From Escherichia coli (GTDB lineage Bacteria; Pseudomonadota; Gammaproteobacteria; Enterobacterales; Enterobacteriaceae): 64,000 bases of DNA. This document shows, in pieces, positions 3,441 to 22,379 of this stretch. The stretch lies in the NCBI RefSeq assembly GCF_048403405.1, contig NZ_CP183129.1; one strand, written 5' to 3'. The position numbers and the translations under genes are program-made. The notes under the pieces were generated by a model, which was given only the letters and a program-made list of their open reading frames with translations, did no database searches and was not told the origin of the DNA. The number at the start of each line of letters is the position of its first letter. Positions within the stretch are counted from its first letter, which is position 1.

Positions 3441-3564
3441 GTAAAACTCCATTTTATTTAATCAAGAAACTGGTGACTCTCACCAGGGGCTATATAGGAT
3501 ATGCCTAATACCGTGGCGTGAGCAGTCCGGAACTGGAGTGGAACTCTTAGTAAAAAGCACTATT

Positions 3565-5565
3565 TCATCCTTGTTGCTGAAGCATGGGGAATAATTGTTC
3601 GCAAAGCAAAACACCGTTATTCATTGCTTCTACCCGTGCCTCGCTTTCTGTATTACGAAATTGTGCCAACACATGTGCCAGCCGATAAAAACCGACCGCG
3701 GTGAGGTCATTCGCCAGCAACTCTGCCTGACCAATAGCACTCTGTTCCTGATAGCGCCAGCCGTTATGGAGCAGTTGAATAAGTAACGCCTGGCAGCGCA
3801 TCAGCAACTGATGAGCGGTAGACGGCACAGGCAAAACGCTGGCAGAAGGTAGCGGTGCCACAGGCGCAGTTTCTGCGTCCAGCGCCCAGGCGCGGGTTTT
3901 TGTCATCATCACCCGTGGTTCCAGTGTCAATTGCCCCTCTACAAAGCTGACAAAGCCAGAAACCAGACTCACGGGGTCGTCTGTTTGTTGCAAAAGCGCC
4001 GCCATGCGTTCAACGGCATAAGGCGCGCTGGCTGAGGCTGGCAGTGATAACGTCAGCAGATTATCTTCACCTTCGCCGCTGATTACCTGCGCATCCAGCG
4101 TCTGGCGGCTGCTATCCCAACCGAGCGAAATACACTCAGCGACCGGCAGAATAAATAAGTTATCGACCTGATTAAGAGGCCGTATGCAGGCGGGAGGACG
4201 CTGGCGTAAATATTCCCGCAAAGCCACAATGCCCGGCTGGCGCAATGGCGCGCTCAACATTTGCCAGGCATCAGGCGACAGCGGCACAACGCTGCTTAAG
4301 CGGTTGCGGGTAGCTAACAGCAGCTCGCCATCGGCACTGCGTTTTGCTGCTTGTGAAACAATTTGCCCGCCCGCCAGTGCGCCAGCCTGAAAACTAAACA
4401 GCCGACGCGTAGCTGCCGGTGAGTTTTCCTGTTCACTTCGCGGCCAACTGCGCGAAAGGTGCAAAATACTGCCGGTGTCGGGATCGGTAAACCAGATGCG
4501 TAAACCATAATGCTCAATATCCTGCCAGCAACGCATACCTAAAGACACCAGCCGCAGATGATCAAGCTTTGCTTCTCCGGCAATGCCAGCGCCAACGACC
4601 GTGCGCCACGGCACAGGAGGAACTTCACCAACACTGTCGCGCCGGGTCATCTCTTGTGCGCAATTTAATCGACTGTTTAATGCCGCAAGCTGACGTAAGC
4701 ATTCTCCGGCATAATAGTGGCTGGCGCGGGCGTGGAAGGCATCAACGCTGGCGCGCAGTTGCCGTAGCGATTCACTCACCCATCGCCAGTTGCAGCGTTC
4801 CGCCGCCTGCTGCGCGCGGCTGAAAGCGGCCTCGTAGTGAATAAGCGGCTGGCTGATGCCGCTCAGCCATAATGCCTGGCTTAGTTGTTGAACATATTGA
4901 CGACACGTTTTGCCTTCTTCGCTGGCAAACGGATCGTCAGATGATGTGACGTGTTCGCTGCGCATCTGCCAGATTAAATGAGTCAATTCCGCTTGCTGCG
5001 CTTTTGCCTGGACAAAGGCCTGTACTGCCAGTACGACATGTTCGCAAAGTGTGCCTTCAATACAATCACAGCGTGCGAAGCGAATGCTGCTGCGGGAATA
5101 AAAACGTACATCGCTCATCGGTAAGCGGGCAGAGGGAATTTCGCCCGGCGTACAGAACAACTCAATGGTGATGCCTTTAGCGACCAGTGCCTGTGCGCGT
5201 TTGCGGGTGGCATCGGGCAGGGTAGCCAGTTCTTCCAGCCAGATTGCCGGATCCCACTCTTCTTCTTTTTCCGTAGGCTGGGTGGTGGCGCAAAGTCGCT
5301 GATAACTTAAAACCAGCATCACGCGATGGCGGCACATGCCGCTGGCCCCGCAGCTGCACTGAGCCTCTTTCAGTGCCTGACCGTTCGCCAGCTGGGTGCG
5401 GACACCGTCACTGAAGGTGGCGATTAAAGCGCCGTTCTCATGGCTGATCTCCGGGACGTTGCCATTTTCCAGTTCCTTAAGACTGCGCTTAACAAAACCG
5501 GCATTGCTTAACGCTGTCAGGGGCTGCGGTGTCAGTTCTAATAATTCCGGACGTAGTGAATTCAT
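3565..5565 (-). CDS. yehQ: SWIM zinc-finger protein YehQ
   Basis: ORF 3565..5589; start chosen at the ATG at 5565, which has a GGAGA SD and overlaps the yehP stop (ATGA). Two CxCx5CxH SWIM-like motifs (CSCGASGMCRH, CDCIEGTLCEH). Confidence 0.75.
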   Translation of the reverse strand: MNSLRPELLELTPQPLTALSNAGFVKRSLKELENGNVPEISHENGALIATFSDGVRTQLANGQALKEAQCSCGASGMCRHRVMLVLSYQRLCATTQPTEKEEEWDPAIWLEELATLPDATRKRAQALVAKGITIELFCTPGEIPSARLPMSDVRFYSRSSIRFARCDCIEGTLCEHVVLAVQAFVQAKAQQAELTHLIWQMRSEHVTSSDDPFASEEGKTCRQYVQQLSQALWLSGISQPLIHYEAAFSRAQQAAERCNWRWVSESLRQLRASVDAFHARASHYYAGECLRQLAALNSRLNCAQEMTRRDSVGEVPPVPWRTVVGAGIAGEAKLDHLRLVSLGMRCWQDIEHYGLRIWFTDPDTGSILHLSRSWPRSEQENSPAATRRLFSFQAGALAGGQIVSQAAKRSADGELLLATRNRLSSVVPLSPDAWQMLSAPLRQPGIVALREYLRQRPPACIRPLNQVDNLFILPVAECISLGWDSSRQTLDAQVISGEGEDNLLTLSLPASASAPYAVERMAALLQQTDDPVSLVSGFVSFVEGQLTLEPRVMMTKTRAWALDAETAPVAPLPSASVLPVPSTAHQLLMRCQALLIQLLHNGWRYQEQSAIGQAELLANDLTAVGFYRLAHVLAQFRNTESEARVEAMNNGVLLCEQLFPMLQQQG

Positions 5566-6698
5566 GACTGAAGATTCTCCGCAAGCCATGATGCCAGCTC
5601 GCCCGGTGTCATGGCGGCTATTTGTGCGCCGACATTAACCAGCGCCTGGGCCGTATCGTGGTCATAGCAAGGTGTTGCGGTGCTATCGAGCGCCGCCAGT
5701 CCCAGTACTTTGATGCCGCTCTGGACACACTTTTTCACCTGATGCGTCAGTAATGATGATGAACCCCCTTCATAAAAATCGCTCACGAGGATAATGACGC
5801 TTTTTGCTGTTTGTTCAATAAGTTGCCGACCATACTCTACGGCACTGGCGATATTGGTTCCGCCGCCTAATTGCACTTTCATTAATAACTCTACCGGATC
5901 GGCAACGTCGGCGGTGAGATCGACGACGCTGGTGTCAAACGCCACCAGATGGGTACGAATGCCGGGTAACTGCCATAAACAGGCCGCCATCACCGCAGAG
6001 TGGATCACCGAGTCAACCATCGATCCGCTTTGATCAACCAGTAAGACCAGTTGCCATTGATCGCTATGGCGCTTAATGCGGCTGTTAAAGCGGGGGGATT
6101 CGATATACAACTTGCCGTGTTGCGGATGCCAGTGTTGCAGGTTGGCACGCAGGGTACTTTTGAAATCGAAATTACGCGCCAGTGGAATAAATGAGCGGCG
6201 ACGGCGATCGCGGACACCAGAAAAAGCCTGGCGAACTTCCTTTGCCAGTCGCGCCATAATCTCTTCAACAACCTGGCGCACTATCCGGCGGGCGGCAGCC
6301 AGCACTTCGGGATTCATCAGATGTTTGGTGTGCAAAACGGCGCGTAGCAGGCTTTCAGAAGGCTGCATACGTTCCAGCACGTCGAGATTCGTCACCACAT
6401 CTTCAATGCCGTAGCGCAGTACGGCATCGCTTTCCAGCCGCTCAATCACCCGTTGCGGAAACAGTGTGTGAATACTGTTGATCCACTCAGGGGTGGTGAA
6501 ATTTGAGTCACCTAATCCACCGGAGCGTTCACCACGCTGGAGCCGTTCAGGATCGCGCCCATACAGCCACTCCAGCGCGTGGTCTATCTGCCGGGCGTTG
6601 TCATCCAGCCCACAAAGCGTCGTTTCTGCCGCTTCGCCAAGAATTAATCGCCAGCGTTGTAGCTCACGGGTGGTCAGAAGATCGTTCAGTTCAGACAT
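5562..6698 (-). CDS. yehP: von Willebrand factor A (VWA) domain protein YehP
   Basis: ORF 5562..6926 trimmed to the ATG at 6698 (MSELNDLLTT..., 378 aa). MIDAS-like motif DQSGSM; start overlaps the yehM stop by 8 nt. Confidence 0.85.
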   Translation of the reverse strand: MSELNDLLTTRELQRWRLILGEAAETTLCGLDDNARQIDHALEWLYGRDPERLQRGERSGGLGDSNFTTPEWINSIHTLFPQRVIERLESDAVLRYGIEDVVTNLDVLERMQPSESLLRAVLHTKHLMNPEVLAAARRIVRQVVEEIMARLAKEVRQAFSGVRDRRRRSFIPLARNFDFKSTLRANLQHWHPQHGKLYIESPRFNSRIKRHSDQWQLVLLVDQSGSMVDSVIHSAVMAACLWQLPGIRTHLVAFDTSVVDLTADVADPVELLMKVQLGGGTNIASAVEYGRQLIEQTAKSVIILVSDFYEGGSSSLLTHQVKKCVQSGIKVLGLAALDSTATPCYDHDTAQALVNVGAQIAAMTPGELASWLAENLQS

Positions 6699-8970
6699 GG
6701 AAAACTCCCCAGTGTTGCAGCGATGCCAGTGCCTGCTGTTCGAGTTGTTGATGATGTGCAATGGCTTGCGGTGGACAATGCAACGGCATTTGCAGCGCTG
6801 AAACGGGAAGCTGTGCGAGCTGGTAATGCTCAAGCACCTGATGCGCCAGCGTCCCGCGTTCTCGTGGTGGTAGCCAGGCCATCGCCGCGCGTAAATCGGG
6901 CAGGGCGTTAATAAAATCGTCGTCACTCAGTTGATTTAAATGACTACTGAAACCGGCGATAAATGCCGGCTGACAGGCCAGTTGATGGCGGGCCAGCGCC
7001 AGCAAACCGTGCAGCGCTTCGCCGGATTGTGCCGGGGATAATTGCGCCAGCATTGTCAGCGCCGCTTCGGCACTGGCGTTGGGATGTTCCAGACGCATCA
7101 GTGCGCCAAGAGCCGCGCCGCGATCCAGCGCCGGGGCATGAATCGCCTGACTGCGGCGCTCCAGTAAGGCTACCGCCGCAGAAAGCGAAACGCCGGGTAA
7201 ATTAACGCCGCTATGTAGATCGCGCAGGATATGGCAAAGCGTCTGCCAGCTATGCAGGTGAGCGTGAAACTCCTTTTCATCTGGTCTGCCGTTAGATTCA
7301 CACAGCCACAGCGTGCGATCGATAGCCGCGCATAACGTCGTTTGTAATATCTGCGCGCCTTGCATACCGCTAATTTCATCCAGCCGCCATAAGGCATATA
7401 GCACTTCCAGCGCCTGGCCCATTTCGGCAAATTGATTTTCCTGGGCGATTAATAATGTGAGTTGCTCCAATAATTGTTGACTGAAGGACGCCAGACCCGC
7501 TAACGCCGCCTGGCTAAGACATGTGGTGATGCAGCCGATTCCACCCGCGTCCAGCATATCGGCTTCTAATTTATGGCGTGCGGCTTCCTGGAGTGTTGCA
7601 CCAAAGCAGGCGGCCTCAATCAATGCCGCATGTTGGCTAAGCGGGCGGGTTAATTTCCAGCGTTCTTCACCGTTGCCTGCAAGTGTCAGTGTACTTCCCT
7701 GCTGGCGCACAACCCCTGGGATCTCCAGTATTACCAGCCGATGTAACACCTGACTTTGCGCCAGTCCATTGGAGTTAAAGCGATTTAAGGTAAGCTCCGC
7801 CGGAAGAGAGATTGCGGTACGTTCCAGTTCGCAGGTGACATCTTTTGGCAGAGGCGGTTGTGGCGTAGAAGGGGCAAGTTTACCGAATCCGTCACCCGCT
7901 AATGTGTCTATCAACGTTAGCAGAATCGGATCGGTATCGGGATGAATAACGCCGCGATAGCTCCACGGCAACGGCGCATTCAGGGCTTCTTTAATCAGCG
8001 ATCCTGCTATGGCATCCAGCCAGTCAGTGCGTAACGGTAGTGTATGACCGCGCAACTGTGCCAGTGCCATCGCATGCAGATGAGCGGCAGCCATATCCGC
8101 GGTCGAAGCAGGCAACTTGTGCTGGCGCAAACGGGTGAGAACCGTTTTTAGCAGTTGTTCTCCCGCCTGCTGTAAGCCCCACTGCCAGCACCAGTTTTGC
8201 CAGACCGGGGCAGGCATTCCTGAAAGGTATCCTGCCAGCACATCAAGGCGCTTTTCACTGTAGGGGGTGAGATAACAACCTGTAACGGCATCATCCAGTA
8301 AGAGCAATTCTGGCGTGTTAATTACCTGCAGACATTCGCGCCACATTTTTGCCAGTGCCGGAGCGTGCCAGCCACCGCAGACAACTAACACGTCGCCATT
8401 ATTTTGCTGCATCGCCCATCCAATCCAGCGGGCCATAAAGGCTTCGCGCTGACGATTGAGAGCATCTCCGGGGGAGTCGCCCCGCAGTTGGGCAAAATAG
8501 TGCGCAAGTGCAGAGGGTAATGCAGTTTGCTGGCTTTCATCTTCGAACAAGTGATCCCACAGGGTGTCGCTGTTATCCATGCGGGTGGCACGCAGCAGCA
8601 AGGTCTGGCTTTCCTCTTGCGTATCAGGCGAATCGTCCTCTTCTTCACTCTGCGCCCAGCAAGGCAAATCGATGAAGTAAGTTTGTGCCTGAATACGACG
8701 AGCGGCTTGTAGCGCCTGCCACTCCGGCGAAAATTCAGCAAATGGCGTCCAGGCACCACGCCCGGGGGCCGCACCGTCCTGATACTGGCAATAACTGTAA
8801 ATAGCTACCGGAAGCTGGTGAGCTAACAACAGTTCGTCTACCCGGTCATTAAAATCAGCCGGGCCTTCAATCAACACGTATCGTGGCCGCTGGCTTTCGA
8901 TTAACGATTTCACCAGCCGGGCGCAGGCCGGACTATGATGCCGGATGCCGACAATTAACGGCTCGCTCAT
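6691..8970 (-). CDS. yehM: uncharacterised protein YehM
   Basis: ORF 6691..9111 trimmed to the ATG at 8970 (MSEPLIVGIRHHS..., 759 aa); operon position between yehL and yehP. Confidence 0.8.
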   Translation of the reverse strand: MSEPLIVGIRHHSPACARLVKSLIESQRPRYVLIEGPADFNDRVDELLLAHQLPVAIYSYCQYQDGAAPGRGAWTPFAEFSPEWQALQAARRIQAQTYFIDLPCWAQSEEEDDSPDTQEESQTLLLRATRMDNSDTLWDHLFEDESQQTALPSALAHYFAQLRGDSPGDALNRQREAFMARWIGWAMQQNNGDVLVVCGGWHAPALAKMWRECLQVINTPELLLLDDAVTGCYLTPYSEKRLDVLAGYLSGMPAPVWQNWCWQWGLQQAGEQLLKTVLTRLRQHKLPASTADMAAAHLHAMALAQLRGHTLPLRTDWLDAIAGSLIKEALNAPLPWSYRGVIHPDTDPILLTLIDTLAGDGFGKLAPSTPQPPLPKDVTCELERTAISLPAELTLNRFNSNGLAQSQVLHRLVILEIPGVVRQQGSTLTLAGNGEERWKLTRPLSQHAALIEAACFGATLQEAARHKLEADMLDAGGIGCITTCLSQAALAGLASFSQQLLEQLTLLIAQENQFAEMGQALEVLYALWRLDEISGMQGAQILQTTLCAAIDRTLWLCESNGRPDEKEFHAHLHSWQTLCHILRDLHSGVNLPGVSLSAAVALLERRSQAIHAPALDRGAALGALMRLEHPNASAEAALTMLAQLSPAQSGEALHGLLALARHQLACQPAFIAGFSSHLNQLSDDDFINALPDLRAAMAWLPPRERGTLAHQVLEHYQLAQLPVSALQMPLHCPPQAIAHHQQLEQQALASLQHWGVFHV

Positions 8971-8980
8971 GCATCTTTCC

Positions 8981-10069
8981 TCACGGCAGGCGGTGGCGAG
9001 CTTGATAATAAGCCTGCCAGTGAGCTTCTTTATGTGTGGCGACGCGCTGTTCGAAGTAACGGCGCAGACGCGCGCGATCTTCTTCGTTATCTTTGACGAT
9101 GGTTCCGGCAATACAGTCCACCAGGTCGGCAGGCTCCCCCGCGCGATTCGCTAAAAACCAGGCGCGGACACCCACAGCATGGGCCACGTTAACGGCTTCA
9201 GCGGTGGACATAATCGCTGTCAGTGTATCCATTGACGTTTTCTTTTCGCCGTTGGCACGCAGATCGCGGAACGTGCGCACCAGTAATTCCAGTACCGCGT
9301 CAGGCACTTTATGCGGAATACCGCTATGGGCCAGCAAACGCGCCGAAGCACTGGCAACCAGTTCCAGCTCCTGGGCGAAATCCATAATCGGAAAGACAGT
9401 TTCAAAATCGAAGCGACGCTTTAGCGCAGCACTCATTTCATTGACGCCGCGATCGCGGGTATTGGCAGTGGCAATAATATTAAAGCCTTCCCGCGCATAG
9501 AGCTGACTGGCTTCACCAGTGAGTTCCGGCACCGTCATTACCCTGTCAGAAAGCATACCTAACAGACAGTCTTGTACTTCCAGCGGTGTACGCGTTATCT
9601 CTTCAAAACGGACGATTTTGCCGTCGCGCATTCCCTGGTAAAGCGGGGCAGGGACCAGCGCTTCCGTTGATGGACCATGATTGATAAGCAGAGCGTAGTT
9701 CCAGCCGTACTTGATTTGATCTTCGGTGGTAGATGCGCCGCCCTGGATGGTTAACCCGGCATCGCCGCTAATAGCGGTTGCCAGTAATTCAGACAGGAGA
9801 GATTTTGCGGTGCCAGGTTCCCCCACCAACATCAAACCGCGCCCGGTGGCAAGAGTGACTAACATACGTTCGACAGCGGAGGGACTAATCACCACTTTAC
9901 GGCTAATATTTTGCGCGCTATCGCCAAGGATAAAAGCACGGGCCGCAGGCAAACTTAACTGCCAACCGGGCGGGCAAGGTGCGTTATCATTTTGTTTTAA
10001 TTTTGCCAGTTCATCGGCGTATAACACAGCAGCAGGCGGACGCTGCAGATGATTATTCTGCGGTGACAT
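8981..10069 (-). CDS. yehL: MoxR-like AAA+ ATPase YehL
   Basis: ORF 8981..10135 trimmed to the ATG at 10069 (MSPQNNHLQ..., 362 aa). Walker A GEPGTAKS; Walker B-like IVRFEE. Confidence 0.85.
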   Translation of the reverse strand: MSPQNNHLQRPPAAVLYADELAKLKQNDNAPCPPGWQLSLPAARAFILGDSAQNISRKVVISPSAVERMLVTLATGRGLMLVGEPGTAKSLLSELLATAISGDAGLTIQGGASTTEDQIKYGWNYALLINHGPSTEALVPAPLYQGMRDGKIVRFEEITRTPLEVQDCLLGMLSDRVMTVPELTGEASQLYAREGFNIIATANTRDRGVNEMSAALKRRFDFETVFPIMDFAQELELVASASARLLAHSGIPHKVPDAVLELLVRTFRDLRANGEKKTSMDTLTAIMSTAEAVNVAHAVGVRAWFLANRAGEPADLVDCIAGTIVKDNEEDRARLRRYFEQRVATHKEAHWQAYYQARHRLP

Positions 10070-10180
10070 ATATTCATCCCTGAAATGTATTAATGAAATA
10101 AACGATATTTTACGCGCAATAAATGTTTGGCGCATTAGTTGTTTGAGCGAAAAATATCTGGAAAGCAGATCACAGTAAAT

Positions 10181-10204
10181 AAAAAAACCTGCTGGTGAGG
10201 CAGG
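10181..10204 (-). terminator. rho-independent terminator of the OrzO-like sRNA
   Basis: Hairpin cctgc-tggtgag-gcagg (10188-10204) flanked on the plus strand by aaaaaaa (10181-10187), i.e. a 7-U tract after the hairpin on the minus strand. Confidence 0.65.
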
Positions 10205-10263
10205 TTCTTTTATTTACTATTTTCAGGCCCAACACCGCAGCCTGTGCAACATCGTGTTCCAAC
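10181..10263 (-). ncRNA. orzO: OrzO-like antisense sRNA (type I antitoxin), divergent from the zorO-like toxin gene
   Basis: Minus-strand promoter TTGCAA (10293-10298), 17-nt spacer, TATAAT (10270-10275); roughly 85-nt transcript ending at the terminator. Its 5' region is the reverse complement (19/20) of a leader segment of the downstream toxin mRNA. Confidence 0.6.
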
Positions 10264-10269
10264 GAACGA

Positions 10270-10320
10270 ATTATAACCATCGGTGGACCCCGTTGCAATT
10301 AAGATAATGAGATTTATAAT
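10270..10320. promoter_or_regulatory. divergent promoters sharing one palindromic -35 hexamer
   Basis: TTGCAA at 10293-10298 is its own reverse complement. A TATAAT lies 16 nt downstream on plus (10315-10320) and another 17 nt downstream on minus (10270-10275). Confidence 0.55.
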
Positions 10321-10409
10321 CCAGACGGTTGGGACGTTGCGCCGGATCGGACCAATTTTAAGTCCTGGCTACCGGACGGGTGGTGCTGCAGGTGGTGCCC
10401 TGATCCGGA

Positions 10410-10591: not shown

Positions 10592-10612
10592 TGGGCAAAT
10601 TGAAACGCATCT

Positions 10613-10644: not shown

Positions 10645-10965
10645 CTATTTTTCTATTTCTTGGTTGAATATATTCTGTAGTTCGCGATTAAAAATGGCTA
10701 TTACCGTTTCTGGTGATTCGCCCCGTAATTTTCGCTCATCAATAAACTCATCTCTTATATAAATCAACGCATCATTTATTAGCGGGTCGACATCCTCTCG
10801 ATCACGTTGATGAAATGTTGGATGTAGCCGGAATCGCTCCAGTCGGTAGACGGAACCTGTAAATAATTCAGAGCATTTATGGATCTCAAGTCTGAAGGAA
10901 AACGGATCTTCAGGTACAGGGACCTCATAATCGTAAATAGCAACCAGCTCTTTTTGCACGATCAT
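10645..10965 (-). CDS. yehK: small conserved hypothetical protein (YehK-like)
   Basis: 106-aa ORF 60 nt downstream of yehI on the same strand; size and position match recalled yehK. Confidence 0.55.
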   Translation of the reverse strand: MIVQKELVAIYDYEVPVPEDPFSFRLEIHKCSELFTGSVYRLERFRLHPTFHQRDREDVDPLINDALIYIRDEFIDERKLRGESPETVIAIFNRELQNIFNQEIEK

Positions 10966-11025: not shown

Positions 11026-14000
11026 TTAATGGAAAATGACGTCGGGTGCGCTTAACGCTTCACTCAAATCAAACACATCAAGTTCGGCAAAAGTGACAGA
11101 TTTATTGTCACGGTATACATGAAGAGAACGGAAGCTCATTAGCGCTTTGCTATCAACATTGTAGTGGTTAAAACCGGATGAAAACTTAAGGACCAGCCGG
11201 TACTCGCCCAGGTCATAGACAAATGCATTCTCATAGCCTGACTCCCAGCCTTTGTATCGCATTCCCATAAGTTGCCCAACGGTAGCAGATTTACCTTCCC
11301 AGCGATTCAAACTATTACTGGCTGACTCGTCAGGCGTGAGCAGTACTGTGCGCCGTGCCAATTGGCGAAAAGGCGGCATAATTTCGTAATCGGCAAAAAG
11401 CTGTGCAAACTCACTGCGCATTTCTGCTGCCATTTCTAACGGGTGGGCAATGCCAATCAGAGCATCGGCAGGCAGGTCAATTGGCTCATCTTGCTCATTG
11501 CAGAACTCCCCCTCAGCGGCCACACGAAAGGCGTTGAGTAAACGACGCGGTTCATTTGCCGGATAAACACCCCATATTAATCGCTGAGTAACCAGACGGG
11601 TAAAGGGATGATTAACAAACAGAGAATGAAAATCTGCCAGCGACCAGCGTCGGGTGGTGCGCAGGGCAGTTTCAAGACGCGGGAGCAGGTTTTTGCTCAC
11701 CTGAGTGGCATCTTTTTTTAGCCCTTTTAGTCGGGCCAGTGCCTCGGGTGCTTTCAGTTGATCGTCATCGGCGCGCAACCGGGGAACGCTTTTCTGGCGA
11801 ACGTTTTGCTGATCAAAGATAACCGGGTTAAGGTTTTCATCGAAGCGAACGGTAAATTGCCGTGGACCAAAATCAAAAATCAACGCCTGCGGATCATCAA
11901 GACCCAGTGTTGGGACTAATCTGTCCGCTAACTGTTCCTGGCTTAGCCCTCGATTTTCTGCGACCACCTGAAGAAATTCCGCCGCGTTATCACGTAAGGG
12001 GCGGGATTTCGCCCGTTGCGATATATGATGCAGCTGTATCAGTGCCATATCATTATTCATCTGAGTAAGTATGTTCAGGCCGCTGACGGCACGGGCAGAT
12101 TTGCCTTCCTGTGGCCAGGCAAGGATCTGTGTCGTCAGATCCCGTGCCGTGCTTTCGTCGCCAAAGAGACTTAACGCCAGAAATGCCCAGTTGTCTTTTG
12201 CGGGAGCACCAGCTTGTTGCCACGCGGTGAAAAGATCCCAGGCAAAAGCTGCCAGCGTTTGCGGCTGGCAGAAAGTTTTCAGTTGTTCCAGTCCGCTATA
12301 AAAACGTCCGCCCTGGGTAAAGCGCAGCATTTCGCCGATAATTTCCAGTGCGTCATCGGTAACAGGCTGATTATTCGTGATAAGGCGCGGCCTGGACCAC
12401 ATTGCCGGCTGCCAGAAATCAGGGGCTTTTGGAATGCGTGTCGGGTAAATCTCTATTGGACTCTGTTTAAGTAAATGCTCCAGGGCAGGCCATACATCTG
12501 TACGCTGCCAGCGGTTTGCCGCGGTTTGCAGCAATTCACCATGTCCCTGTTCGTAAAGTAAACGTAGGGCAAGTAATGCAGCTTCGCTATTATCGCTGGA
12601 TTTGGTGAAGACAAGAGGGATAAGTGCAGTAGCCGTATGTTCCGGCCATTGTAAAATCCACTGGCGAGCCAGATCACGCTGCGCCGCGAAACGTCGCCAG
12701 ACGCGGGCAACGGGCAGGGCCAGTTCTGTTGCGCCAAAATTTAAAATTAACGGAAATGTTTCTTTTGGACGATATGAAAAAGCCAACAGCAGACCTGGTA
12801 GAGCATCCAATCCGAAGATACTGAGAAAATAGTCCTCACCCGCGAACAGATGCTTTTTCTCATTGATACGTAGCCAGAAAGTCAAAGCCATCTCACGCGG
12901 CAACTGTGCCAATAAATACAGGTTCCAGATACTCTTTTCCCGACGATAGCGTGAGTAGCTGTCATTTTCCCATATGTTAATTAACACTTCTACGTGACCG
13001 CTGCGAAGCGCCTGTTCTGCTAATTGTGCTTCCGGGGAGTTCCAGCCATTCAGGATCTCTTCAACCCGCCCCTGGTAGTAATGCCACTGAACAATGAGTG
13101 AATTGCGTGCAGCATCCAGTTTTCCGGGGAGTATATAATTCAGAAACAGCCATACATCATCTCCAAAACCCAGCTCCTGTAGTACAACTCGTCCACTTTT
13201 ATGTTCCATGCGTTCCGCAAGAGATTCCGTGCTGAAATAACGGGCAGACTCAGTGGCGGCAAGCCTCTCTCGTTCGCCTGGTTGCCAGTAAACTTGCGGC
13301 GTTAATTCGAACGGTGCCAAATCAAGACGTGGAACTGTCATTTTTTTCTTACTACGCCACGGTGGTGAAACGAGGATTTCAGGCATTTGGCTGTTATCGG
13401 TGCTATCAATAACCGTTTTAGGCGGTGCCGATAAATAACTATTCAGCACTGACCGGGCTTGAGTACTTAACCACGGCATCACCTCTTCTGCCAGTTGTGG
13501 CTGCGATGCCATCAGCGTTTGTAACAGCGTACGCCAGTATTCATCACGTGCTTTTTGCTGTGCAGGCAGCTTTTTGTCTTCGATGATTGGATAACCAGGG
13601 CGCGTAGGTGGTTCTTTTAGCGCCAGCAGTTCTGCCAGTGCGGCAAGCGTCGCATGGGGGAAATTTTTACTGTATTTAGCTACACGTTGCAGGCTGGGTT
13701 TGTTTTTATCAGCAACTAACAGCAGGGTGCGGATGACCTGCGGATGGTTAATTTGTACCAGCAGACTGCCGCAATCTTCTTTATGGGCATACATTGCCAG
13801 GCGTGGAACGGCTGCCAGTCCTTGTTCGCGCAAAAGGGCAGCGCAGGCCGCGTAGCCGAAGTGGTTTTCATGCGACATGTAGCTGGCTTCCCGATCGCTA
13901 AATATATCCTGGCTCCAGTAGCGTTCGAGTTTTCTCACCGCTCTGGGGTCAATAGCAACAACTTTTAACCACTCCTTAGAATGAAAATGAGTCCACGGGC

Positions 14001-14658
14001 ATTCAAGGCTTACCAACTCATTGGCGATTTCTGGTTTTTCCGGGAGGATCAGAGCAATAAAAGGGCGGCGAACTTTGGTTATTCCTGGCAGTGCGGCAAT
14101 GAGTTTGTCGGCGCAACGCTGCCAGCTGCTTTCCTCTGCCAGAGAGAGATGCTTACGCAGTCGGAGATCGAATTCGTTATAGGTTTCTGATCGATAACCA
14201 TAGCCATAATCCTCGTTCTGATACTGCAATGTCACTAGCAGAGGATCACTTTCATAACATCGTGTAATAAACTGGCGTGCAATCACCACCTCAGTCGCAT
14301 ATTCCAGTCCCTCTTGTTGGACGATTTCGTCGAGCAACTGTTGGCTATCATTTTGCGCGATACAGGCTAGCGCCGCCATTGTCCGGGCCGGAACTGAGGG
14401 TTTGTGTTCGCCAATCAAGTTGATGGCCTGCGTAATGGCCGACTGCCACTCCAGTGAAAAATTTTCATAACGCCAGACAATGTTTTTTTTCTTCTCAGCT
14501 TTTTGTAGCAATTCATCACCCAGTGTCTGGATGAGGCTTTCAGTGATAACAGGCACCGGTTCGCCCGGCCAACTGCGATGGCTGAGCGGCGTTTTGCCTT
14601 TTTTATATTTCAGTTCCACTTGGGCGTTATCCGCCAGCCACGGTAATTCCTTGTCCAT
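11026..14658 (-). CDS. yehI: DUF4132-family giant protein YehI (1210 aa)
   Basis: Full ORF from the track. C-terminal region shares motifs with the two upstream paralogs (DFGPRQFTV, HPLEM..FAQLFADYEIMPPFRQL); no N-terminal WGR domain. Confidence 0.85.
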   Translation of the reverse strand: MDKELPWLADNAQVELKYKKGKTPLSHRSWPGEPVPVITESLIQTLGDELLQKAEKKKNIVWRYENFSLEWQSAITQAINLIGEHKPSVPARTMAALACIAQNDSQQLLDEIVQQEGLEYATEVVIARQFITRCYESDPLLVTLQYQNEDYGYGYRSETYNEFDLRLRKHLSLAEESSWQRCADKLIAALPGITKVRRPFIALILPEKPEIANELVSLECPWTHFHSKEWLKVVAIDPRAVRKLERYWSQDIFSDREASYMSHENHFGYAACAALLREQGLAAVPRLAMYAHKEDCGSLLVQINHPQVIRTLLLVADKNKPSLQRVAKYSKNFPHATLAALAELLALKEPPTRPGYPIIEDKKLPAQQKARDEYWRTLLQTLMASQPQLAEEVMPWLSTQARSVLNSYLSAPPKTVIDSTDNSQMPEILVSPPWRSKKKMTVPRLDLAPFELTPQVYWQPGERERLAATESARYFSTESLAERMEHKSGRVVLQELGFGDDVWLFLNYILPGKLDAARNSLIVQWHYYQGRVEEILNGWNSPEAQLAEQALRSGHVEVLINIWENDSYSRYRREKSIWNLYLLAQLPREMALTFWLRINEKKHLFAGEDYFLSIFGLDALPGLLLAFSYRPKETFPLILNFGATELALPVARVWRRFAAQRDLARQWILQWPEHTATALIPLVFTKSSDNSEAALLALRLLYEQGHGELLQTAANRWQRTDVWPALEHLLKQSPIEIYPTRIPKAPDFWQPAMWSRPRLITNNQPVTDDALEIIGEMLRFTQGGRFYSGLEQLKTFCQPQTLAAFAWDLFTAWQQAGAPAKDNWAFLALSLFGDESTARDLTTQILAWPQEGKSARAVSGLNILTQMNNDMALIQLHHISQRAKSRPLRDNAAEFLQVVAENRGLSQEQLADRLVPTLGLDDPQALIFDFGPRQFTVRFDENLNPVIFDQQNVRQKSVPRLRADDDQLKAPEALARLKGLKKDATQVSKNLLPRLETALRTTRRWSLADFHSLFVNHPFTRLVTQRLIWGVYPANEPRRLLNAFRVAAEGEFCNEQDEPIDLPADALIGIAHPLEMAAEMRSEFAQLFADYEIMPPFRQLARRTVLLTPDESASNSLNRWEGKSATVGQLMGMRYKGWESGYENAFVYDLGEYRLVLKFSSGFNHYNVDSKALMSFRSLHVYRDNKSVTFAELDVFDLSEALSAPDVIFH

Positions 14659-14667
14659 GCTCTTTCC

Positions 14668-17600
14668 TTATTCAAACAGGGCTTCAATATCGTTAATGAG
14701 TTCGCTGGCGGTGATGTCGTCGAGCACGGAGAACTGCGCTTCCTGAGTTGAATTACTCCCCCAGCCATAGCTTTCCGCTTTGCCTTCCCATAGCCACAGC
14801 TTGCTTAAGACCTGCTCAGCGCTAAGATCGGCTGGTGACATACCCACCGCAAAACCTTCGTCGATTTCCATGATTAACGACCAGCGACCGAGAGGTTTGA
14901 TCATCCATCCGATCCAGCCTCCATCCTGTGGTTCGCCCTTTATCCAGCCTTTATTTGCCAGCCCCATGACCCGGCCGCTCGGGCATTTTCTGCCTGCCCA
15001 GCGGGTCAGTTCGCTGGCGTTGCGCTCGGCTTCTGTCAGGGCGTAACTGTTACGTTCAAGCTGACGGAACGGTGGTAGCAGTTCGTAGTCGGCAAAAAGC
15101 TGACCAAAGGCGACAGCATCCGTCGGTGATATTTCCAGAACGTGAGGAATGCCAACAGAGATATCGCCTTCCTGCAAGGTGAAAAGATCATCGTCAGCGG
15201 TGCTGTAGCTGTTATCTTCCGCCACCCTAAAGCACGCCTGTAGCTGGTTTTCGGCGCTATAAACGCCCCAAATCAGACGGCGGGTTAAGTGACGAACCAG
15301 CGGATGCTCAACCAGGAAGAGCTGAAAGTTTTCCGGCGACCAGCGGCGGCGCAGGCACATGGCGGATTCCAGCCTTGCTACCTGCTGGGCGGCGACGGTA
15401 CGCGCATCTTTTTTCAGCAATTTGTAGCGGTTAACAGCATCGTTTGCCTGTGATTCATCATCGCTTTTATTGGGTTTAGGTAAGTCTTTCAGGCGGCTGC
15501 CGGAAACATCGCGCACAAACGGTTTTAAGGTTTCATCAAAGCTGACGGTGAACTGCCGTGGGCCAAAATCCAGCAGCAGCGAACCGTTATCATCCAGACC
15601 GAGAGCCGGTGCTAACCGATCTTCAAGCTCCGCTACCGTCAGTTCGCGACTTTCGGCAATGTCGGCAATTTTCTCTTTCGCCCGCTCCTGTAATGCTTTG
15701 AATTTCAGTTTCTGGGCAATGCCGTTAAGCTGCATCAGGGCGATATCACTACTGATAGCGGCGAGGATATCCAGCCCGACGGTGGCGCGTTTATGCTGGG
15801 ATTCACCAGGCCAGGCGCGTATTAATGGCGTCAGTTTGCGGGCGGTGTCATCGTTACCGAGAACGCCTAACGCAGTGAACGCCCAACTCTCTTTCGACGG
15901 CGCGCCAGCGGTCTGCCAGGCGGTAAACAGATCCCAGGCAAATTCAGCCAGTGAGTCGGCGGTACAGGCATCTTTCACCTGCAATAATCCCGGATACAGC
16001 GCCTCCTCCTGATGGAAGCGGAGCATTTCACCGAGGTGCTGGAGTGCGCTATCGGGCAGTGATTGGGCATTTGCTTTTAATACCGGGCGGGTCCAGATCG
16101 ATGGCTGATAAAAGGCCGGAAGAGTGGGGATTTTTGTCGGGTGATTATCTAAGGGATCGAGCGCAAGCATAGCGTTCACCGCATCTGTTACTTCCGGCTG
16201 GTTATAACGCCGGGCGATTTCTTGCAGTAATGGTTGATGACCGTTTTCGGTAAGCATACGCAATGCAGCGCGGGCGTTATCCTGTGCTTCACCGGCTTTG
16301 CCGAGCGCCGCAGACAGCAGGCCGGTAATGGCGTGTTCCGGGTATTTCAGCAGCCAGGTGCGGGCGTCTTGTCGTAGGGTTTTGAGTTTGTTGAAGGCGC
16401 GGGCGACGGCAGGTGCCAGCTCACTCGCTGCGAAGTAATTCGTTATGGGCAAGGCTTCCTGTGGATAGCGTGCAAGTGAGTTTACTAACCCAGGTAATCC
16501 TTTGAGTCCAAAATGTAACATGGCGTATTCGGTATCGGTATGCGGAGATAGAGTAAGGGCATTCCATGCTCTTACTGCTTTCTCCAGCGGCAATGTTGTC
16601 AAAATCCCCAAATGCCAATAATGCCCGGTAGGTGAATGAAACACCTTAAATTCACTTATTAAAGTTGAATAATCTTCATTTAGCCATGCCTCAACTACCG
16701 CTTCGGGAGCTTTAATATATGTACCAGCGATCCGTCGTTGAAAACCCATCCTTGCCAACAGATTGGCAGTACTTTCTTCATGACTAACCGTGATGTGTTT
16801 TGAATACCAGATATATTTCGCCAAAAGTTGATTACTGATTTCTTCTGTCAGATAACTGATTGGCTCAATACCTAATGGTGCTAAATCAAGCACTGGAATC
16901 GGCGATTTTTTCTTTTTCGAAAGCCATGGTGGGGAGACTACTATGGCCGGCAGTAGATCGGCGCTGGCATGGTTTGAGGGCTGTGTCAGTTGTTGCTGGC
17001 ATGATTTCAGCACTGCAACTGCGGGTGTCGAAAGCCAGGGAATGACCTGTTCTGCTAGTGTCGGTTGCGAGATAAGCATCGTCATTAGCATAATGCGCCA
17101 ACTATTCTCTTCTTTTTGCACTAGAAGTTCCGCCAGTGCTGCCAGTGCTGCGTGTGGGAACGCAGCGCAGGCTTTCGTCATTCGATCGTGACAGCGTTTA
17201 GTATGCCCTGCTACACGTATAAGCAGTGTTAATGCGAACGGATGATTGATATGACGCAACACATCGGCGCAGTAGTCACTTGCGACATAGGGAGCAAATC
17301 GGGGCAGGGCCGCAACACCTTGCTCCTGTAATACGGTGGCTGACCATATCGCACCACAATAGTAATCATCAAAAATGGCATATGGCTCGTGATATTTTTC
17401 TAATGAGGCAAGAATGTGCTCATCAGTCGCCACTATTTTTAGCCACTCCAGCGAGGGTAATTTCTTTTGCCCCAGTAGACGCTGGGCAATTTCATGTGCA
17501 ATTTCTGGTTTTTCGGGCAATAACAAAGCAATTAATGGTTGCCGCCATTCTGGAATATGTGGAACTGCGGCAATAAGTTTTTGTGCACATTTTTGCCAGA

Positions 17601-18462
17601 GAGACTCTTCCGCCAGTGATAAATGTTTACGTAGGCGTAATTCAAAGCTGGAATATTGCTGCAAATAATCAGGTGAAATGCCAGACGACAGGAAAACAAT
17701 ATTATTGTTGACATAATCCCATTCAATAGATATTTGTTGAAGATGTATTATTACATCAGTAGCATATTCCAGACCGCCTTCCTGAATAATCTGATCCATA
17801 ACATCCGCACGCTCTTTATATCTCGTGCAGTGCAGTTCAAGTGCCGCGAGTACAGCCATTACCGGTGATGGTAATTTTGTCGTTTTCGGGCTGTTAATCA
17901 GATCGATCGCCTGAGCGATGAAGTTTTGCCACTCTAAAGTACAGGCGCTGAAGTCAAATGTAGCTGTTTTGTTATCCCGTTGCGACACGCCACAGGCTAA
18001 GCGACGTAACTGGGTTAATTTATCTACAGGTGTAACAGGATCTCCGGGAAAGCGGCGATGGCTTAAGGTGGTGGGTACGACTTCAAGCGGAAAAACGACA
18101 GCAATATCTTTTGCCAGCCACGGTAAAATAACGTCTGTATTTTTGTCAGCCACGTAGAATTCTGGTGTAACTGAGGGCTGTTCCTGAATGATGGTAGAAA
18201 AGTCAGATAATTCGAGAGATTTCGTTACCGTTCGAGTATGTTTCGATGTAGCATTCTCCGCATGTTCCACATACCCCTTTTTCGTTTTCTCCGCAATCAG
18301 CTTGAGTTCCGCTTTTTCCGCCGCCGCAGCATCTGCAAAGCTTTTTACCTGACTTTGCCCGTTGGTGCCGACTTTGCCCCAACTGATATTCAGTTCGTTT
18401 CCCTGCTGCTCCACCGCCCAGAATTTATGTGATTTTTCGTCCTGATAAATATAGGTTTTCAT
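14668..18462 (-). CDS. MolR-like giant protein, N-terminal WGR domain plus DUF4132 (1264 aa)
   Basis: N-terminus MKTYIYQDEKSHKFWAVEQQGNELNISWGKVGTNGQ (WGR signature); C-terminal DUF4132-like region; 9-nt gap to yehI. Confidence 0.85.
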   Translation of the reverse strand: MKTYIYQDEKSHKFWAVEQQGNELNISWGKVGTNGQSQVKSFADAAAAEKAELKLIAEKTKKGYVEHAENATSKHTRTVTKSLELSDFSTIIQEQPSVTPEFYVADKNTDVILPWLAKDIAVVFPLEVVPTTLSHRRFPGDPVTPVDKLTQLRRLACGVSQRDNKTATFDFSACTLEWQNFIAQAIDLINSPKTTKLPSPVMAVLAALELHCTRYKERADVMDQIIQEGGLEYATDVIIHLQQISIEWDYVNNNIVFLSSGISPDYLQQYSSFELRLRKHLSLAEESLWQKCAQKLIAAVPHIPEWRQPLIALLLPEKPEIAHEIAQRLLGQKKLPSLEWLKIVATDEHILASLEKYHEPYAIFDDYYCGAIWSATVLQEQGVAALPRFAPYVASDYCADVLRHINHPFALTLLIRVAGHTKRCHDRMTKACAAFPHAALAALAELLVQKEENSWRIMLMTMLISQPTLAEQVIPWLSTPAVAVLKSCQQQLTQPSNHASADLLPAIVVSPPWLSKKKKSPIPVLDLAPLGIEPISYLTEEISNQLLAKYIWYSKHITVSHEESTANLLARMGFQRRIAGTYIKAPEAVVEAWLNEDYSTLISEFKVFHSPTGHYWHLGILTTLPLEKAVRAWNALTLSPHTDTEYAMLHFGLKGLPGLVNSLARYPQEALPITNYFAASELAPAVARAFNKLKTLRQDARTWLLKYPEHAITGLLSAALGKAGEAQDNARAALRMLTENGHQPLLQEIARRYNQPEVTDAVNAMLALDPLDNHPTKIPTLPAFYQPSIWTRPVLKANAQSLPDSALQHLGEMLRFHQEEALYPGLLQVKDACTADSLAEFAWDLFTAWQTAGAPSKESWAFTALGVLGNDDTARKLTPLIRAWPGESQHKRATVGLDILAAISSDIALMQLNGIAQKLKFKALQERAKEKIADIAESRELTVAELEDRLAPALGLDDNGSLLLDFGPRQFTVSFDETLKPFVRDVSGSRLKDLPKPNKSDDESQANDAVNRYKLLKKDARTVAAQQVARLESAMCLRRRWSPENFQLFLVEHPLVRHLTRRLIWGVYSAENQLQACFRVAEDNSYSTADDDLFTLQEGDISVGIPHVLEISPTDAVAFGQLFADYELLPPFRQLERNSYALTEAERNASELTRWAGRKCPSGRVMGLANKGWIKGEPQDGGWIGWMIKPLGRWSLIMEIDEGFAVGMSPADLSAEQVLSKLWLWEGKAESYGWGSNSTQEAQFSVLDDITASELINDIEALFE

Positions 18463-18474: not shown

Positions 18475-21400
18475 TTAATCAAAAAGTGATTCGATGTCGT
18501 TAATGAGTTCGCTGGCGGTGATGGCATCAAGCGCGGAGAACGTGAGCGAGGGCTGTGTACTGTAGCGTTCCCCTGGTGAAGTGATTTTTACGCTTTCAAC
18601 AGGTAGCAGGTCGCTATACCCCGTTTCGCCATAAATTAATGAAAAATGTTCTGTTTCAAGTTCGAGAGCGCCATAAGGGGTAGATTTGCGCATCGCATAG
18701 ACGCTGCCGCTTTCTTCCAGACGTTGCCAGCCTCGACGTTCCAGCCCGACAATGCGCCCGGCCTGGCAAAGACGTCCTTGCCAGCGTATCAATTCATGGG
18801 TATCACGTTCATTATCAGTAAGGTGGTAATAACCACGATCGAGTTGGCGAAAGGGAGGAAGCTTTTCGTAATCAGCATAAATTTGCCCAAATGCAGTGGC
18901 GGATTCAGGAGATATTTCCAGCACATGCGGTATACCGATGTTTCCTGCTGGCAGCGTGAATAACTCATCCTGCGCATCGCTGTAAGTGCTGTCTTCTGCG
19001 ACCCGGAAGCAGGCGATCAGCGTGTTTTCCTCAGTATATACCCCCCATAACACCCGTCGGGTTAAGTGACGTACCAGCGGATGCTCCACCAGAAACAGGC
19101 GGAACTGCTCTGCCGTCCAGCGTCTGCGCTGGCACATATCCTGCTCCAGACGATCAATCTGCTGGCTGGCAATGGCGTGCACATCTTTCTTCAATTGTTT
19201 GAAGAGGTTAACGGAGTCAGTTGCCAGTGTTTGATCATCGCTCTGATTTGGTTTGGGTAAATCTTTCAGGACTTTGCCGTTTGCATCGTGCACTACAGGT
19301 TTTAAGGTTTCGTCAAAACCAACGGTGAATTGACGTGGGCCGAAATCCAGTATCAGCGAGCCACTGTTATCAAGCCCTAAATCTGGAGCCAGGCGGTCTT
19401 CCAGTTCAGCCATAGTCAGCCCACGGTTTTCAGCAACTATGTTGATTTTCTCGCGGGCATGTTCCTGTAATGCTTTGAATTTAATTTTTCGCGCGATGCC
19501 ATTAAGCAGCATTAGCGCAACATCGCTGCCAATATCAGCTAATACATCCAGCCCGTAAACCGCGCGTTTATGCTGGGATTCACCCGGCCAGGCACGGATA
19601 AGCGGGGTTAATTTACGTGCGGTGTCGTCATTGCCTAAAATCCCAAGCGAAGTAAATGCCCAGTTTTCTTTTGCGGGTGCGCCAGCTTCTGTCCATGCCG
19701 TGTAGAGATCCCAGCCAAAGTCAGCCAGTGATTCGTGGGTGAAGGTCTCTTTGATGGTCGCCAGCCCAGCGTAGGAGGTAATGTCGCGTGGAAAGCTCAA
19801 CATTGTGCCCAGGTGGCGCATAGCGTCATCTGGCAGAGGCAGGTTGTTACTTTTAAGCCGTGGTCTGCGCCATAAGGTGAACTGATAAAAGCCGGGCAGT
19901 GGGGCGATTTTAGCGGGATATTCTTCCAGCGGATCGCTATCGAACAATGTTGCCAGCGCAGCTAAAACATCAGGTTGGTTGTATCTCCGGCCGATTTCTT
20001 CAATCGTTTCTCGCTGGTTTAATTTCACTAGCAGGCGGAATGCCTGGCGGGCATATTCCCGATTTTGGCACGGTTTGCCCAGCGCCAAAGGCAGTAGCCC
20101 GGCGGCGGCATGGCGCGGGTTATTTGCCAGCCAATTAATGGCATCCTTGTAAGCCATTTTTTTCTGTAATCGCTGCGCCATTGGTAAGGCTAGTTCACTG
20201 GCCCCAATAAAGAGGGTGAATATCCACAGTCGTTGATGATCTCGTTGCAAGCAGGTCATAAACGCAGGAATGGCCGTACTACCAAAAACTGCCAGAATCT
20301 CTTTCTCACCTGAATATCGCTCCTCAATGATTATTTGGTTGAGAAATGAAATCGCCTGTTGTCCCGGTAAGTAACAAAGCGCAGATAGATTCCAGCTTTT
20401 GTTGGCATTGTTGTGATATTTCGCAAACTCAGCTTTTAGTGCTGGAAAATCAAAGCGCAACAAGGCATCAACAGCGCTTTGCGGTATATATTTTTTTTCA
20501 TGTAAGTCATCTTCGCAATGCAGCCATTCATTAAAACCTAATTGCCAAAGGATTTGTTGTTCTGGTGTAAAAGGAATGAAAGATGTCTCCCAGCTTTCTT
20601 TTTCAATTAGTGGCAGGTCGGTAAATAAGGTTTGCTGTGATGACTGATATTGCGCGATTTCACTGAATCTGGATATGTCAGTATGACTGATTAACTCTGT
20701 AATTCCTGGCGTGATGTCAGTGACTGCAGGGATGGGAAGCACCGGTAAATCAAATACGGGTATTACATTCGTTTTCTTATTTATTACCCACGGTGGAGCG
20801 ACAAACAGCTCCGGCAACATATCCGCAGTGGCGTATTCACATTCTTCAGCGACTAACTGAGTACGACATTCAGATAAGATGCCTGCCGCTTTAGCATTAA
20901 CCCAGGGAATGACGTCAGTGACTAAATCTGGCGTGGCGGTAATCAGTTTGACAAGCGCTTTACGCCACTGTGCATCTTCATGTATTGCCAGTAAAGTTGC
21001 ATAAGCGGCAAGAGCCGCAGCGGGATGTTTTTGACAGGCTTTGCTTAAGTATTCCAGGTGCTTTTTCTTGCCAATTACACCGAGGATCAGAATTTGAATC
21101 GCATCCGGGTGATTCGTTTTCCATAGCCATTTGACAAGATCTTCAGTCTCGCTGATGCGCTCGAAGAGATAAGTGGGATTGTCAGAATGCTCTTCCGTAA
21201 ACTCAAGAAGTATCCGGCTTACACCGCGCACCCCATTATTTGCCAGCAACATTGCCAGATAAGCGCGAAAATCATGATACAACGGTGGGAAGTCGTATTT
21301 TTCTGCTGTAGTCAGAGCGGCGTCATCGGTTACCACCAGTCTTAACCAGGTCATCGCCGGAACGTTTTGATCTGCATAACGTAGCGCCATAGCATTGGCA

Positions 21401-22272: not shown

Positions 22273-22379
22273 TCTGCATCCCTGTAATTTTATCCAGTTG
22301 AATGCTGATGCTACCAGTATTTATGCGGGTTAGAGAGAGACAAAATCGCAAGAAAACAACTTTAGGAATTTATAAAGAA

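Follow-up and report, generated by a model that had tools for sequence, protein, structure and literature searches.

What do the four genes yehL, yehM, yehP and yehQ of Escherichia coli build together, and are they the whole of it? We addressed this question with a 64,000-nucleotide stretch of an E. coli chromosome (contig NZ_CP183129.1 of assembly GCF_048403405.1; this whole stretch is called the window below), in which yehLMPQ occupies positions 10069 down to 3565 of the minus strand. From 3400 to 10300 the sequence is the same as in E. coli GN02461 (100% identity), and K-12-type strains match it at about 96%. A first-pass annotation, made from the sequence alone, had taken the locus for a tightly coupled operon encoding a 'four-component machine'. 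The four parts are upheld, but the count is incomplete: a very large protein with a DUF4132 domain is a fifth partner, its gene lying directly upstream on the same strand, as detected with tblastn, in 68 of the 76 loci with enough flanking sequence. The gene order DUF4132, AAA+ ATPase, DUF5682, VWA, SWIM is conserved, with overlapping junctions, in three phyla. The function of this cassette we infer. We tentatively prefer, with somewhat less than even confidence, to see yehLMPQ as the core of a self-contained, five-component, cytoplasmic and DNA-associated complex for ATP-driven remodelling or processing, in which DUF4132 proteins would serve as adaptors.

Gene order and extent of the cassette

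Related loci were found by scanning one genome per species with the YehM signature [VI]RHHSP[AS][CA]A and confirming the matches by tblastn, which gave at least 554 confirmed stretches. The comparative set consists of 82 loci, 80 of them from among these at least 554 matches and two obtained earlier. They come from Gamma- and Betaproteobacteria, Myxococcota and Actinomycetota; Alphaproteobacteria were added through plasmid matches.

In the window, yehL (10069..8981, 362 aa, a MoxR-family AAA+ ATPase of the YehL subfamily), yehM (8970..6691, 759 aa, DUF5682), yehP (6698..5562, 378 aa, a CoxE-type VWA protein with an intact metal ion-dependent adhesion site, or MIDAS) and yehQ (5565..3565, 666 aa, a SWIM-finger protein) all lie on the minus strand, so that the four co-directional genes first described here are confirmed in position and orientation. 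The motifs quoted for YehL, YehP and YehQ were recovered by translation at the expected coordinates, and the junctions are also as described, with a gap of 10 nucleotides (nt) between yehL and yehM, an overlap of 8 nt (ATGTCTGA) between yehM and yehP, and an ATGA overlap of 4 nt between yehP and yehQ. Among the 82 loci the order L-M-P-Q is essentially invariant, and YehP homologs stand downstream of YehL homologs in 79. The L-M junction has a median of +2 nt, and the M-P and P-Q junctions both have a median of -4 nt, with overlaps in 71 of 79 and 63 of 77 loci, respectively. Recurrence of the order and of the tight junctions in about 80 loci of three phyla goes beyond chance and supports the single-operon reading.

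The median gap between the DUF4132 gene and its downstream partner is 39 nt. Extending the search to 10 kb brings the count to 72 of 76 loci, the additions being E. whittamii, with yehK in between, two loci with a divergent copy and one with a downstream copy. Pfam labels are at hand for Chitinivorax, Variovorax and two metagenomic contigs; in each, the AAA_5 gene is immediately preceded by one for a DUF4132 protein of 1060 to 1390 aa, and three of these four proteins carry an N-terminal WGR domain. Two to four tandem DUF4132 copies are found in 32 of 74 loci, three copies being frequent in the actinomycete loci.

The window itself holds an array of three such giants, all on the minus strand. 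The MolR-like paralog A (22272..18475, 1265 aa) has Pfam matches to WGR at residues 5-67 (1.1e-17) and to DUF4132 at residues 999-1182 (8.9e-48). Paralog B (18462..14668, 1264 aa) has both domains as well, and its counterpart in K-12 is frameshifted with an internal stop. The third gene, yehI (14658..11026, 1210 aa), is annotated as 'DUF4132 domain-containing protein YehI' and lacks the WGR domain. Paralogs A and B are 43% identical overall; the WGR domain and the C-terminal third are common to both, and their middle of about 650 residues is far more divergent. Between YehI and the paralog next to it, identity is 38% over about 1190 aa. The WGR domain of paralog A matches 2ra8, a bacterial WGR protein of solved structure (1e-16), and, faintly, that of PARP3. 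An ad hoc hidden Markov model for DUF4132 also gave matches on YehL open reading frames (ORFs); these were rejected as homology and are regarded as an artefact of read-through ORFs in a crude training set.

Engine and giants differ in their spread within the species. At a coverage of at least 80%, yehLMPQ is near-core (5202 of 5426 complete E. coli genomes), versus 1103 of the 5426, about a fifth, for the three-copy array at 11026-22272; sequence identity within E. coli is mostly 90 to 95% for the array versus 95 to 99% for yehLMPQ. By these sequence comparisons the DUF4132 array is polymorphic within E. coli, both in copy number and in sequence. In an ST131 sublineage, a blaCTX-M-15 transposon has inserted into the 'metG/DUF4132/yeh' region (PMC9334617).

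When all flanking ORFs were clustered in search of a sixth gene or a client, other families each recurred in 7 of 84 loci at most, apart from two larger clusters (44 and 16 loci). These two consist of minus-strand ORFs that overlap the DUF4132 and YehP genes, and are read as antisense shadows in high-GC DNA. Because no further family recurs, we consider the cassette to be self-contained, without a conserved client enzyme in its neighbourhood. Between yehI and yehL the window has yehK (10965..10645, minus strand), a 106-aa ORF for which tblastn found a homolog in E. whittamii alone among the 82 loci; it thus appears specific to Escherichia. It gave no PADLOC match, and whether it is part of the system is doubtful.

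A few loci depart from the standard arrangement. The yehM-yehP junction is split in an Azoarcus metagenome-assembled genome (MAG; L026, positions 4137-5666) by BrnT/BrnA-like and HigB/HigA-like toxin-antitoxin-like pairs, and in Chitinibacter (L024, 12442-13698) by an unrelated 346-aa ORF; as extra components these inserts were rejected, being idiosyncratic insertions. In two Myxococcota MAGs (L036 and L044), the yehP homolog is followed by ORFs of about 312 to 352 aa with weak TPR/PA2778-peptidase-like matches, and ORFs of about 830 to 890 aa with weak BamB-like (beta-propeller) matches are also present. These extra ORFs may be swapped sensor modules.

Domains and folds of the encoded proteins

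The MoxR, VWA and SWIM assignments of the first-pass annotation are backed by Pfam (AAA_5, VWA_CoxE and SWIM, the second SWIM finger at an E-value of 0.21), and NCBIfam returned at most weak, generic AAA and VWA matches for the operon proteins. Sequence searches against PDB chains gave no match for YehP, for YehQ, or for YehM as a single sequence.

YehL matches AAA_5 at 2.6e-34. Its Walker A motif GEPGTAKS (9823..9800), Walker B motif VRFEE, sensor 1 TAN and arginine finger KRRF are invariant in 82 sequences, which upholds its description as a MoxR-type AAA+ protein; one of the MoxR subfamilies is in fact named after it (PMC3893208). In sequence, the solved structures closest to it are AAA modules of Midasin (3e-10), followed by MoxR 2r44 and McrB, and weak matches were obtained to GvpN (NCBIfam), Mg_chelatase (Pfam) and bpMoxR (Pfam, E-value 0.002).

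YehP matches VWA_CoxE at 6e-71 and, weakly, a cobaltochelatase model of NCBIfam. Its MIDAS comprises DQSGS (6035..6021), then T281 and D307; the residues D222, S224, S226, T281 and D307 are kept in about 79 of 80 homologs, so that the VWA protein with a MIDAS first proposed here stands. As a separate observation, a change within yehP, at 5825-5840 of the window (minus strand), weakens a Shine-Dalgarno-like GGAG stimulator, and a frameshift product at this site would end 75 residues short of the C-terminus of the VWA protein, losing the MIDAS residue D307. Three metagenomic proteins of about 1120 to 1180 aa (P0175, P0229 and P0266) align to YehM over their N-terminal 600 to 730 residues and to YehP over their C-terminal 365 or so. 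They may be rare natural YehM-YehP fusions, or else frameshift artefacts at the 4-nt overlap, which are possible because each cluster has one or two members.

An AAA_5/MoxR ATPase gene adjoining a gene for a VWA protein with intact MIDAS is the arrangement of RavA-ViaA, CbbQ-CbbO, NorQ-NorD and CoxD-CoxE. These pairs, however, adjoin their client enzyme (Rubisco, nitric oxide reductase, carbon monoxide dehydrogenase, LdcI/Nuo), whereas yehLMPQ has no conserved client gene and has instead three further conserved partners, namely the TIKI-fold/HEAT, SWIM-OB and WGR-DUF4132 proteins. Midasin/Rea1, a factor of eukaryotic ribosome assembly, resembles the cassette in providing the best solved relatives of YehL and in combining an AAA ring, a MIDAS domain and long helical solenoids. 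It is nevertheless a single chain of 5000 aa with six AAA modules, whereas the yeh parts are separate genes and include a hydrolase-fold domain and modules of DNA-binding type, so that the analogy is one of function only. The ternary MoxR-vWA-beta-propeller systems (Pfam bpMoxR) likewise add sensor-like partners to a MoxR and vWA core, but the standard cassette has no beta-propeller partner, the weak BamB-like ORFs being those of the two Myxococcota variants.

YehM had been called a '759-aa unknown'. It belongs to DUF5682 (Pfam, 1.5e-96), a family of which we found no mention in the literature searched, and its unknown status can now be revised. In an AlphaFold2 model built from a 73-sequence alignment (predicted local distance difference test score, pLDDT, 92.7), the N-terminal 250 aa or so (8970..8221) form a TIKI/TraB/ChaN/erythromycin-esterase fold, followed by a HEAT/ARM-like helical solenoid. 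The fold of the N-domain matches TraB, ChaN, Ere-like proteins, HopBA1 and RRSP, and it had been predicted beforehand from the invariant residues of the protein. These comprise G8-x-R10-H11-H12, which follows strand 1, E35 within strand 2, and G199-G200-x-H202 behind the strand of residues 194-199; across 73 sequences the corresponding motifs GIRHH, LIEGP and CGGWH show little or no variation. They mirror the TraB pattern GTAHVS / VAVE / GAGHL, and the TIKI/TraB family is defined by paired GxxH motifs with a conserved Glu/Arg. On the model, then, the N-domain has the shared alpha/beta fold of the superfamily.

With the TIKI/TraB/PrgY/ChaN/erythromycin-esterase/RRSP superfamily YehM thus shares the predicted fold, two GxxH-type motifs and an acidic residue after the second strand. 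It differs in having no significant sequence-profile match to the superfamily, and in that its domain is fused to a solenoid of about 500 aa within a MoxR-VWA operon, a context that we did not find described. The N-domain is a putative metal-dependent hydrolase, most likely a peptidase.

The 'double SWIM' reading of YehQ holds for E. coli, where both motifs are present, but not for the family at large. Finger 1, CSCGASGMCRH (5358..5326), matches the Pfam model at an E-value of 9.7e-4, and its ligands are invariant in 49 of 49 homologs. Finger 2, CDCIEGTLCEH (5070..5038), the weaker of the two in Pfam, is lineage-specific, its zinc ligands being kept in 29 of the 49 homologs and lost in 20. The structure model (pLDDT 92.1) lays out the protein as SWIM 1, SWIM 2, a helical bundle, two OB barrels and a C-terminal four-helix bundle. 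The consecutive barrels, at residues 331-428 and 470-561 (331-561 correspond to 4575..3883), are each five-stranded in the model, with the classic OB strand order and a helix between strands 3 and 4. YehQ would therefore carry, behind its SWIM fingers, a predicted tandem OB module, for which the resemblance to RPA70 and HIN domains is borderline. Many variants of YehQ from E. coli and Shigella (P0298, P0315, P0318 and others), 620 to 637 aa long, are about 90% identical over 100% of the query, which suggests in-frame indel polymorphism of this protein within the species.

Regulation and state of the locus in E. coli

Upstream of the giants, 10 nt before the start of the first molR-like gene and just after metG, lies a LexA (SOS) box-like palindrome, CTGGATAAAATTACAG (22282..22297, minus strand), of the form CTGG-N8-ACAG, one mismatch away from CTGT-N8-ACAG. 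According to a review, molR is one of the E. coli genes for which an SOS box is known (PMC6590174), and the molR promoter is activated by BglJ-RcsB (PMC3950696). As to the engine, yehL and yehM are up in hns/stpA mutants, and H-NS is bound to the intergenic region (PMC3686432); the region upstream of yehL contains no LexA box. In Deinococcus, the DdrO/IrrE DNA-damage regulon includes one WGR protein and one DUF4132 protein (PMC8533742). Going by the Deinococcus proteins DRA0166 and DR2173, giants may also occur where the engine is absent.

The spacer between yehK and yehL is 575 nt long and holds a zor-orz type I toxin-antitoxin locus (10181-10592), in agreement with the location given by Fozo et al. 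(PMC2887945). It includes an OrzO-P antitoxin RNA (10181-10256, minus strand, 101 bits), the OrzO terminator hairpin (about 10206-10186) in the same direction as yehL, divergent promoter-like sites at about 10270-10320, and a 29-aa hydrophobic ORF on the plus strand (MDTLTQKLTVLIAVLELLVALLRLIDLLK, about 10503-10592). Since zor-orz occupies the spacer, about 110 nt are left for a yehL promoter. The G+C content is 53 to 56% over yehLMPQ (3500-10000), about 44% in the upstream spacer and about 49 to 52% in the DUF4132 genes; this contrast is compatible with a separate or foreign origin of yehLMPQ, and also with H-NS binding at the AT-rich spacer.

All four yeh genes are intact ORFs in the source strain, as are the molR-like genes and yehI. 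The ratio of non-synonymous to synonymous substitution rates (dN/dS) lies between 0.035 and 0.15 across yehL, yehM, yehP and yehQ in comparisons with E. whittamii, Klebsiella oxytoca and Intestinirhabdus, the YehQ-Klebsiella pair left out, and is about 0.04 for yehL. Such sequence comparisons point to strong purifying selection on all four genes. K-12 has two DUF4132 genes, versus three in the window. In K-12 strain MC4100 (L085), yehQ (13166-15166) is annotated as a pseudogene with an internal stop, and the MolR-like gene (23997-27792) as a pseudogene with a frameshift and an internal stop. This may explain the lack of phenotypes, and it implies that most functional genomics was done on a crippled system.

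Possible functions of the cassette

How could these parts work together? In the complex that we propose, YehL would assemble into a MoxR-type ring on which YehP docks, the MIDAS metal gripping an acidic residue of the client; this step is drawn by analogy with RavA-ViaA, CbbQ-CbbO and the ring/MIDAS pair of Midasin, in which a ring-docked MIDAS grips an acidic client residue. YehM, coupled to YehP in translation and occasionally fused to it, would be the scaffold, and its hydrolase domain, peptidase being the most likely activity, would process the client once remodelled. Through its two OB barrels YehQ may tether or gate the complex on DNA. The part of interchangeable adaptors, or of clients, would fall to the DUF4132 giants, with a conserved C-terminal third that docks on the engine and a divergent middle that sets specificity. 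We see them as adaptor-like because they occur in tandem, vary in copy number, and have the WGR domain and C-terminal third in common, whereas their middle differs. The WGR domain, where present, would read DNA ends or nicks, DNA ends being what the WGR domains of PARPs read. The predicted output is the ATP-driven extraction and/or cleavage of one or several proteins at damaged or unusual DNA. For E. coli, the giants would be SOS-regulated, going by the published listing, and the engine H-NS-silenced. We draw the link to DNA damage because of the SOS-box-like site, the listing of molR under LexA (PMC6590174) and the Deinococcus DdrO regulon (PMC8533742).

Several observations weigh against this proposal, some of them bearing on the DNA link. 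A WGR-like N-terminus was found by tblastn in 29 of 74 loci, so that the DNA-end reading is not universal. The Foldseek similarity of the YehQ tandem OB module to RPA70 DBD-AB and HIN domains is borderline, with one match at an E-value of 0.001 or less and target-normalised template modelling scores (TM-scores) of 0.37 to 0.43, and OB folds also bind proteins and sugars. The box CTGGATAAAATTACAG of E. coli is imperfect and, by its position, would control the giants and not yehLMPQ. LexA-type boxes (of the gamma/beta and actinobacterial types) sought in the 82 related loci were of unremarkable frequency and none was in promoter position; SOS control is therefore not a conserved feature of the cassette. 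Other points concern its composition and chemistry. In this strain, yehLMPQ is set apart from the giants by yehK, zor-orz and a terminator, and because of zor-orz and the co-oriented terminator it is probably transcribed separately from them. In the Myxococcota loci L036 and L044, L, M and P are present and neither YehQ nor DUF4132 was detected. Against profiles of the Tiki superfamily, 2 of 73 YehM members gave sub-threshold matches to Cofac_haem_bdg (ChaN), the best at 5.5e-3, and a YehM profile compared with PDB sequences gave nothing but spurious coiled-coil matches to ATP synthase b. Finally, some proteins of the TIKI-fold family, ChaN among them, are non-catalytic.

Three other explanations were considered: immunity, maturation or metal insertion, and decay.

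The cassette may be an immune system against phages or mobile elements, in which the giants and the OB module of YehQ sense foreign nucleic acid, the MoxR-VWA pair transduces the signal and the YehM protease is the effector. It would then resemble the NTPase-vWA conflict systems that comparative genomics has proposed. The polymorphic paralog arrays of giants would suit such a role, as would the pattern of divergence. Across phyla, identity to the E. coli proteins is 58 to 76% for YehL, 51 to 70% for YehP, 36 to 48% for YehM and 21 to 38% for YehQ, and the giants and YehQ taken together diverge faster than the ATPase (21 to 46% versus 58 to 76%). H-NS silencing of the operon, a G+C content above that of its flanks, toxin-antitoxin insertions in or beside the cassette (zor-orz here, the BrnT/HigB-like pairs in L026), a patchy distribution among genera, and the HIN-like and PARP-like DNA-sensor folds point in the same direction. 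However, the operon is near-core and fixed in position in E. coli, and all four of its genes are under strong purifying selection. At the loci with Pfam labels (Chitinivorax, Variovorax and the two metagenomic contigs), the neighbours are housekeeping genes and not defence islands. The cassette is also nearly absent from phages and mobile plasmids: 38 plasmid records carry it, several of which resemble mis-labelled chromosomes or megaplasmids by their size, and the phage side amounts to one weak match, a 14-kb unannotated 'Bacteriophage sp.' contig from human faeces (MT835988.1). In this sole match of the phage collection, positions 11208-12770 are 27.6% identical to YehM residues 1-515. Among the eight proteins searched against PADLOC-DB 2.0, none has a PADLOC match at an E-value of 0.1 or less, save a spurious one of 0.063 for YehL, and no toxic effector is recognisable beyond the putative hydrolase. 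On balance we regard an immune role as unlikely.

A housekeeping role in enzyme maturation, as a chaperone or as a chelatase-like device for metal or cofactor insertion, appears less likely still. The giant would hold the substrate and the AAA+/VWA pair would drive insertion, a plan followed by CobN-CobS-CobT, BchH-BchI-BchD, NorQ-NorD and CoxD-CoxE. Like the class I chelatases (CobN-S-T, BchH-I-D), the cassette combines an AAA_5 ATPase, a VWA/MIDAS subunit and a subunit of 1200 to 1400 aa; YehP is of the CoxE-type VWA family and weakly matches a cobaltochelatase, YehL weakly matches GvpN and Mg_chelatase, a near-core and stable chromosomal site suits housekeeping, and the old label of molR, 'molybdate metabolism regulator', would fit too. 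The giant of the cassette is nevertheless unrelated to theirs: the MolR-like protein shows WGR and DUF4132 in Pfam and WGR alone in PDB, without homology to CobN or BchH. Moreover, no target enzyme, cofactor-biosynthesis gene or other pathway gene is conserved nearby, and such a scheme has no place for the divergent tandem paralogs, for the SWIM, OB and WGR modules, or for the TIKI-fold hydrolase, YehM and YehQ being extra with respect to the chelatases. The molybdate annotation reportedly could not be confirmed, according to Pfam, and we know of no molybdoenzyme defects in K-12, which has lost molR and yehQ.

That yehLMPQ is the decaying remnant of a horizontal acquisition, with no current function in E. 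coli, is very improbable: the K-12 pseudogenes yehQ and molR, the many truncated forms of YehQ and YehM in E. coli and Shigella, and H-NS silencing would suit it, but the ORFs of this strain are all intact, comparison with E. whittamii, Klebsiella and Intestinirhabdus gives a dN/dS of 0.035 to 0.15, the YehQ and YehM clusters that dominate hold full-length proteins and run to thousands of members, and the catalytic motifs are invariant.

The five-part remodelling complex can be taken one step further, to a specific picture in which we place little confidence. The cassette would be a chromosomal DNA-surveillance machine, in which the giants and YehQ recognise DNA ends, single-stranded DNA or protein-DNA lesions and bring in the Midasin-like MoxR ring, which with its MIDAS adaptor pulls proteins off DNA and passes them to the TIKI-fold protease. 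Such a machine would be the bacterial equivalent, in function, of the route by which eukaryotes deal with DNA-protein crosslinks (p97/Cdc48-SPRTN/Wss1). Or the same logic would be aimed at invading DNA, as a new form of innate immunity.

The operon, its domain labels and the MoxR subfamily of YehL are already known from databases and literature. In the literature that we searched, we found no paper treating yehLMPQ as one unit, and no description of the five-gene unit with WGR-DUF4132 arrays, of the TIKI/TraB fold of DUF5682, of the tandem OB module of YehQ, or of K-12 as a carrier of two of the genes as pseudogenes. No function has been assigned to the YehL subfamily from the first classification of MoxR proteins onwards, and the operon belongs to the near-core share of the E. 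coli 'y-ome'. With a five-part cassette, a protease-type fold, DNA-sensor-type folds in two other parts and the inactivation of two parts in K-12, what was a vague ATPase of unknown substrate becomes a directly testable system. If the DNA-linked reading is true, the cassette would represent a new type of bacterial ATP-driven system for processing or sensing proteins on DNA.

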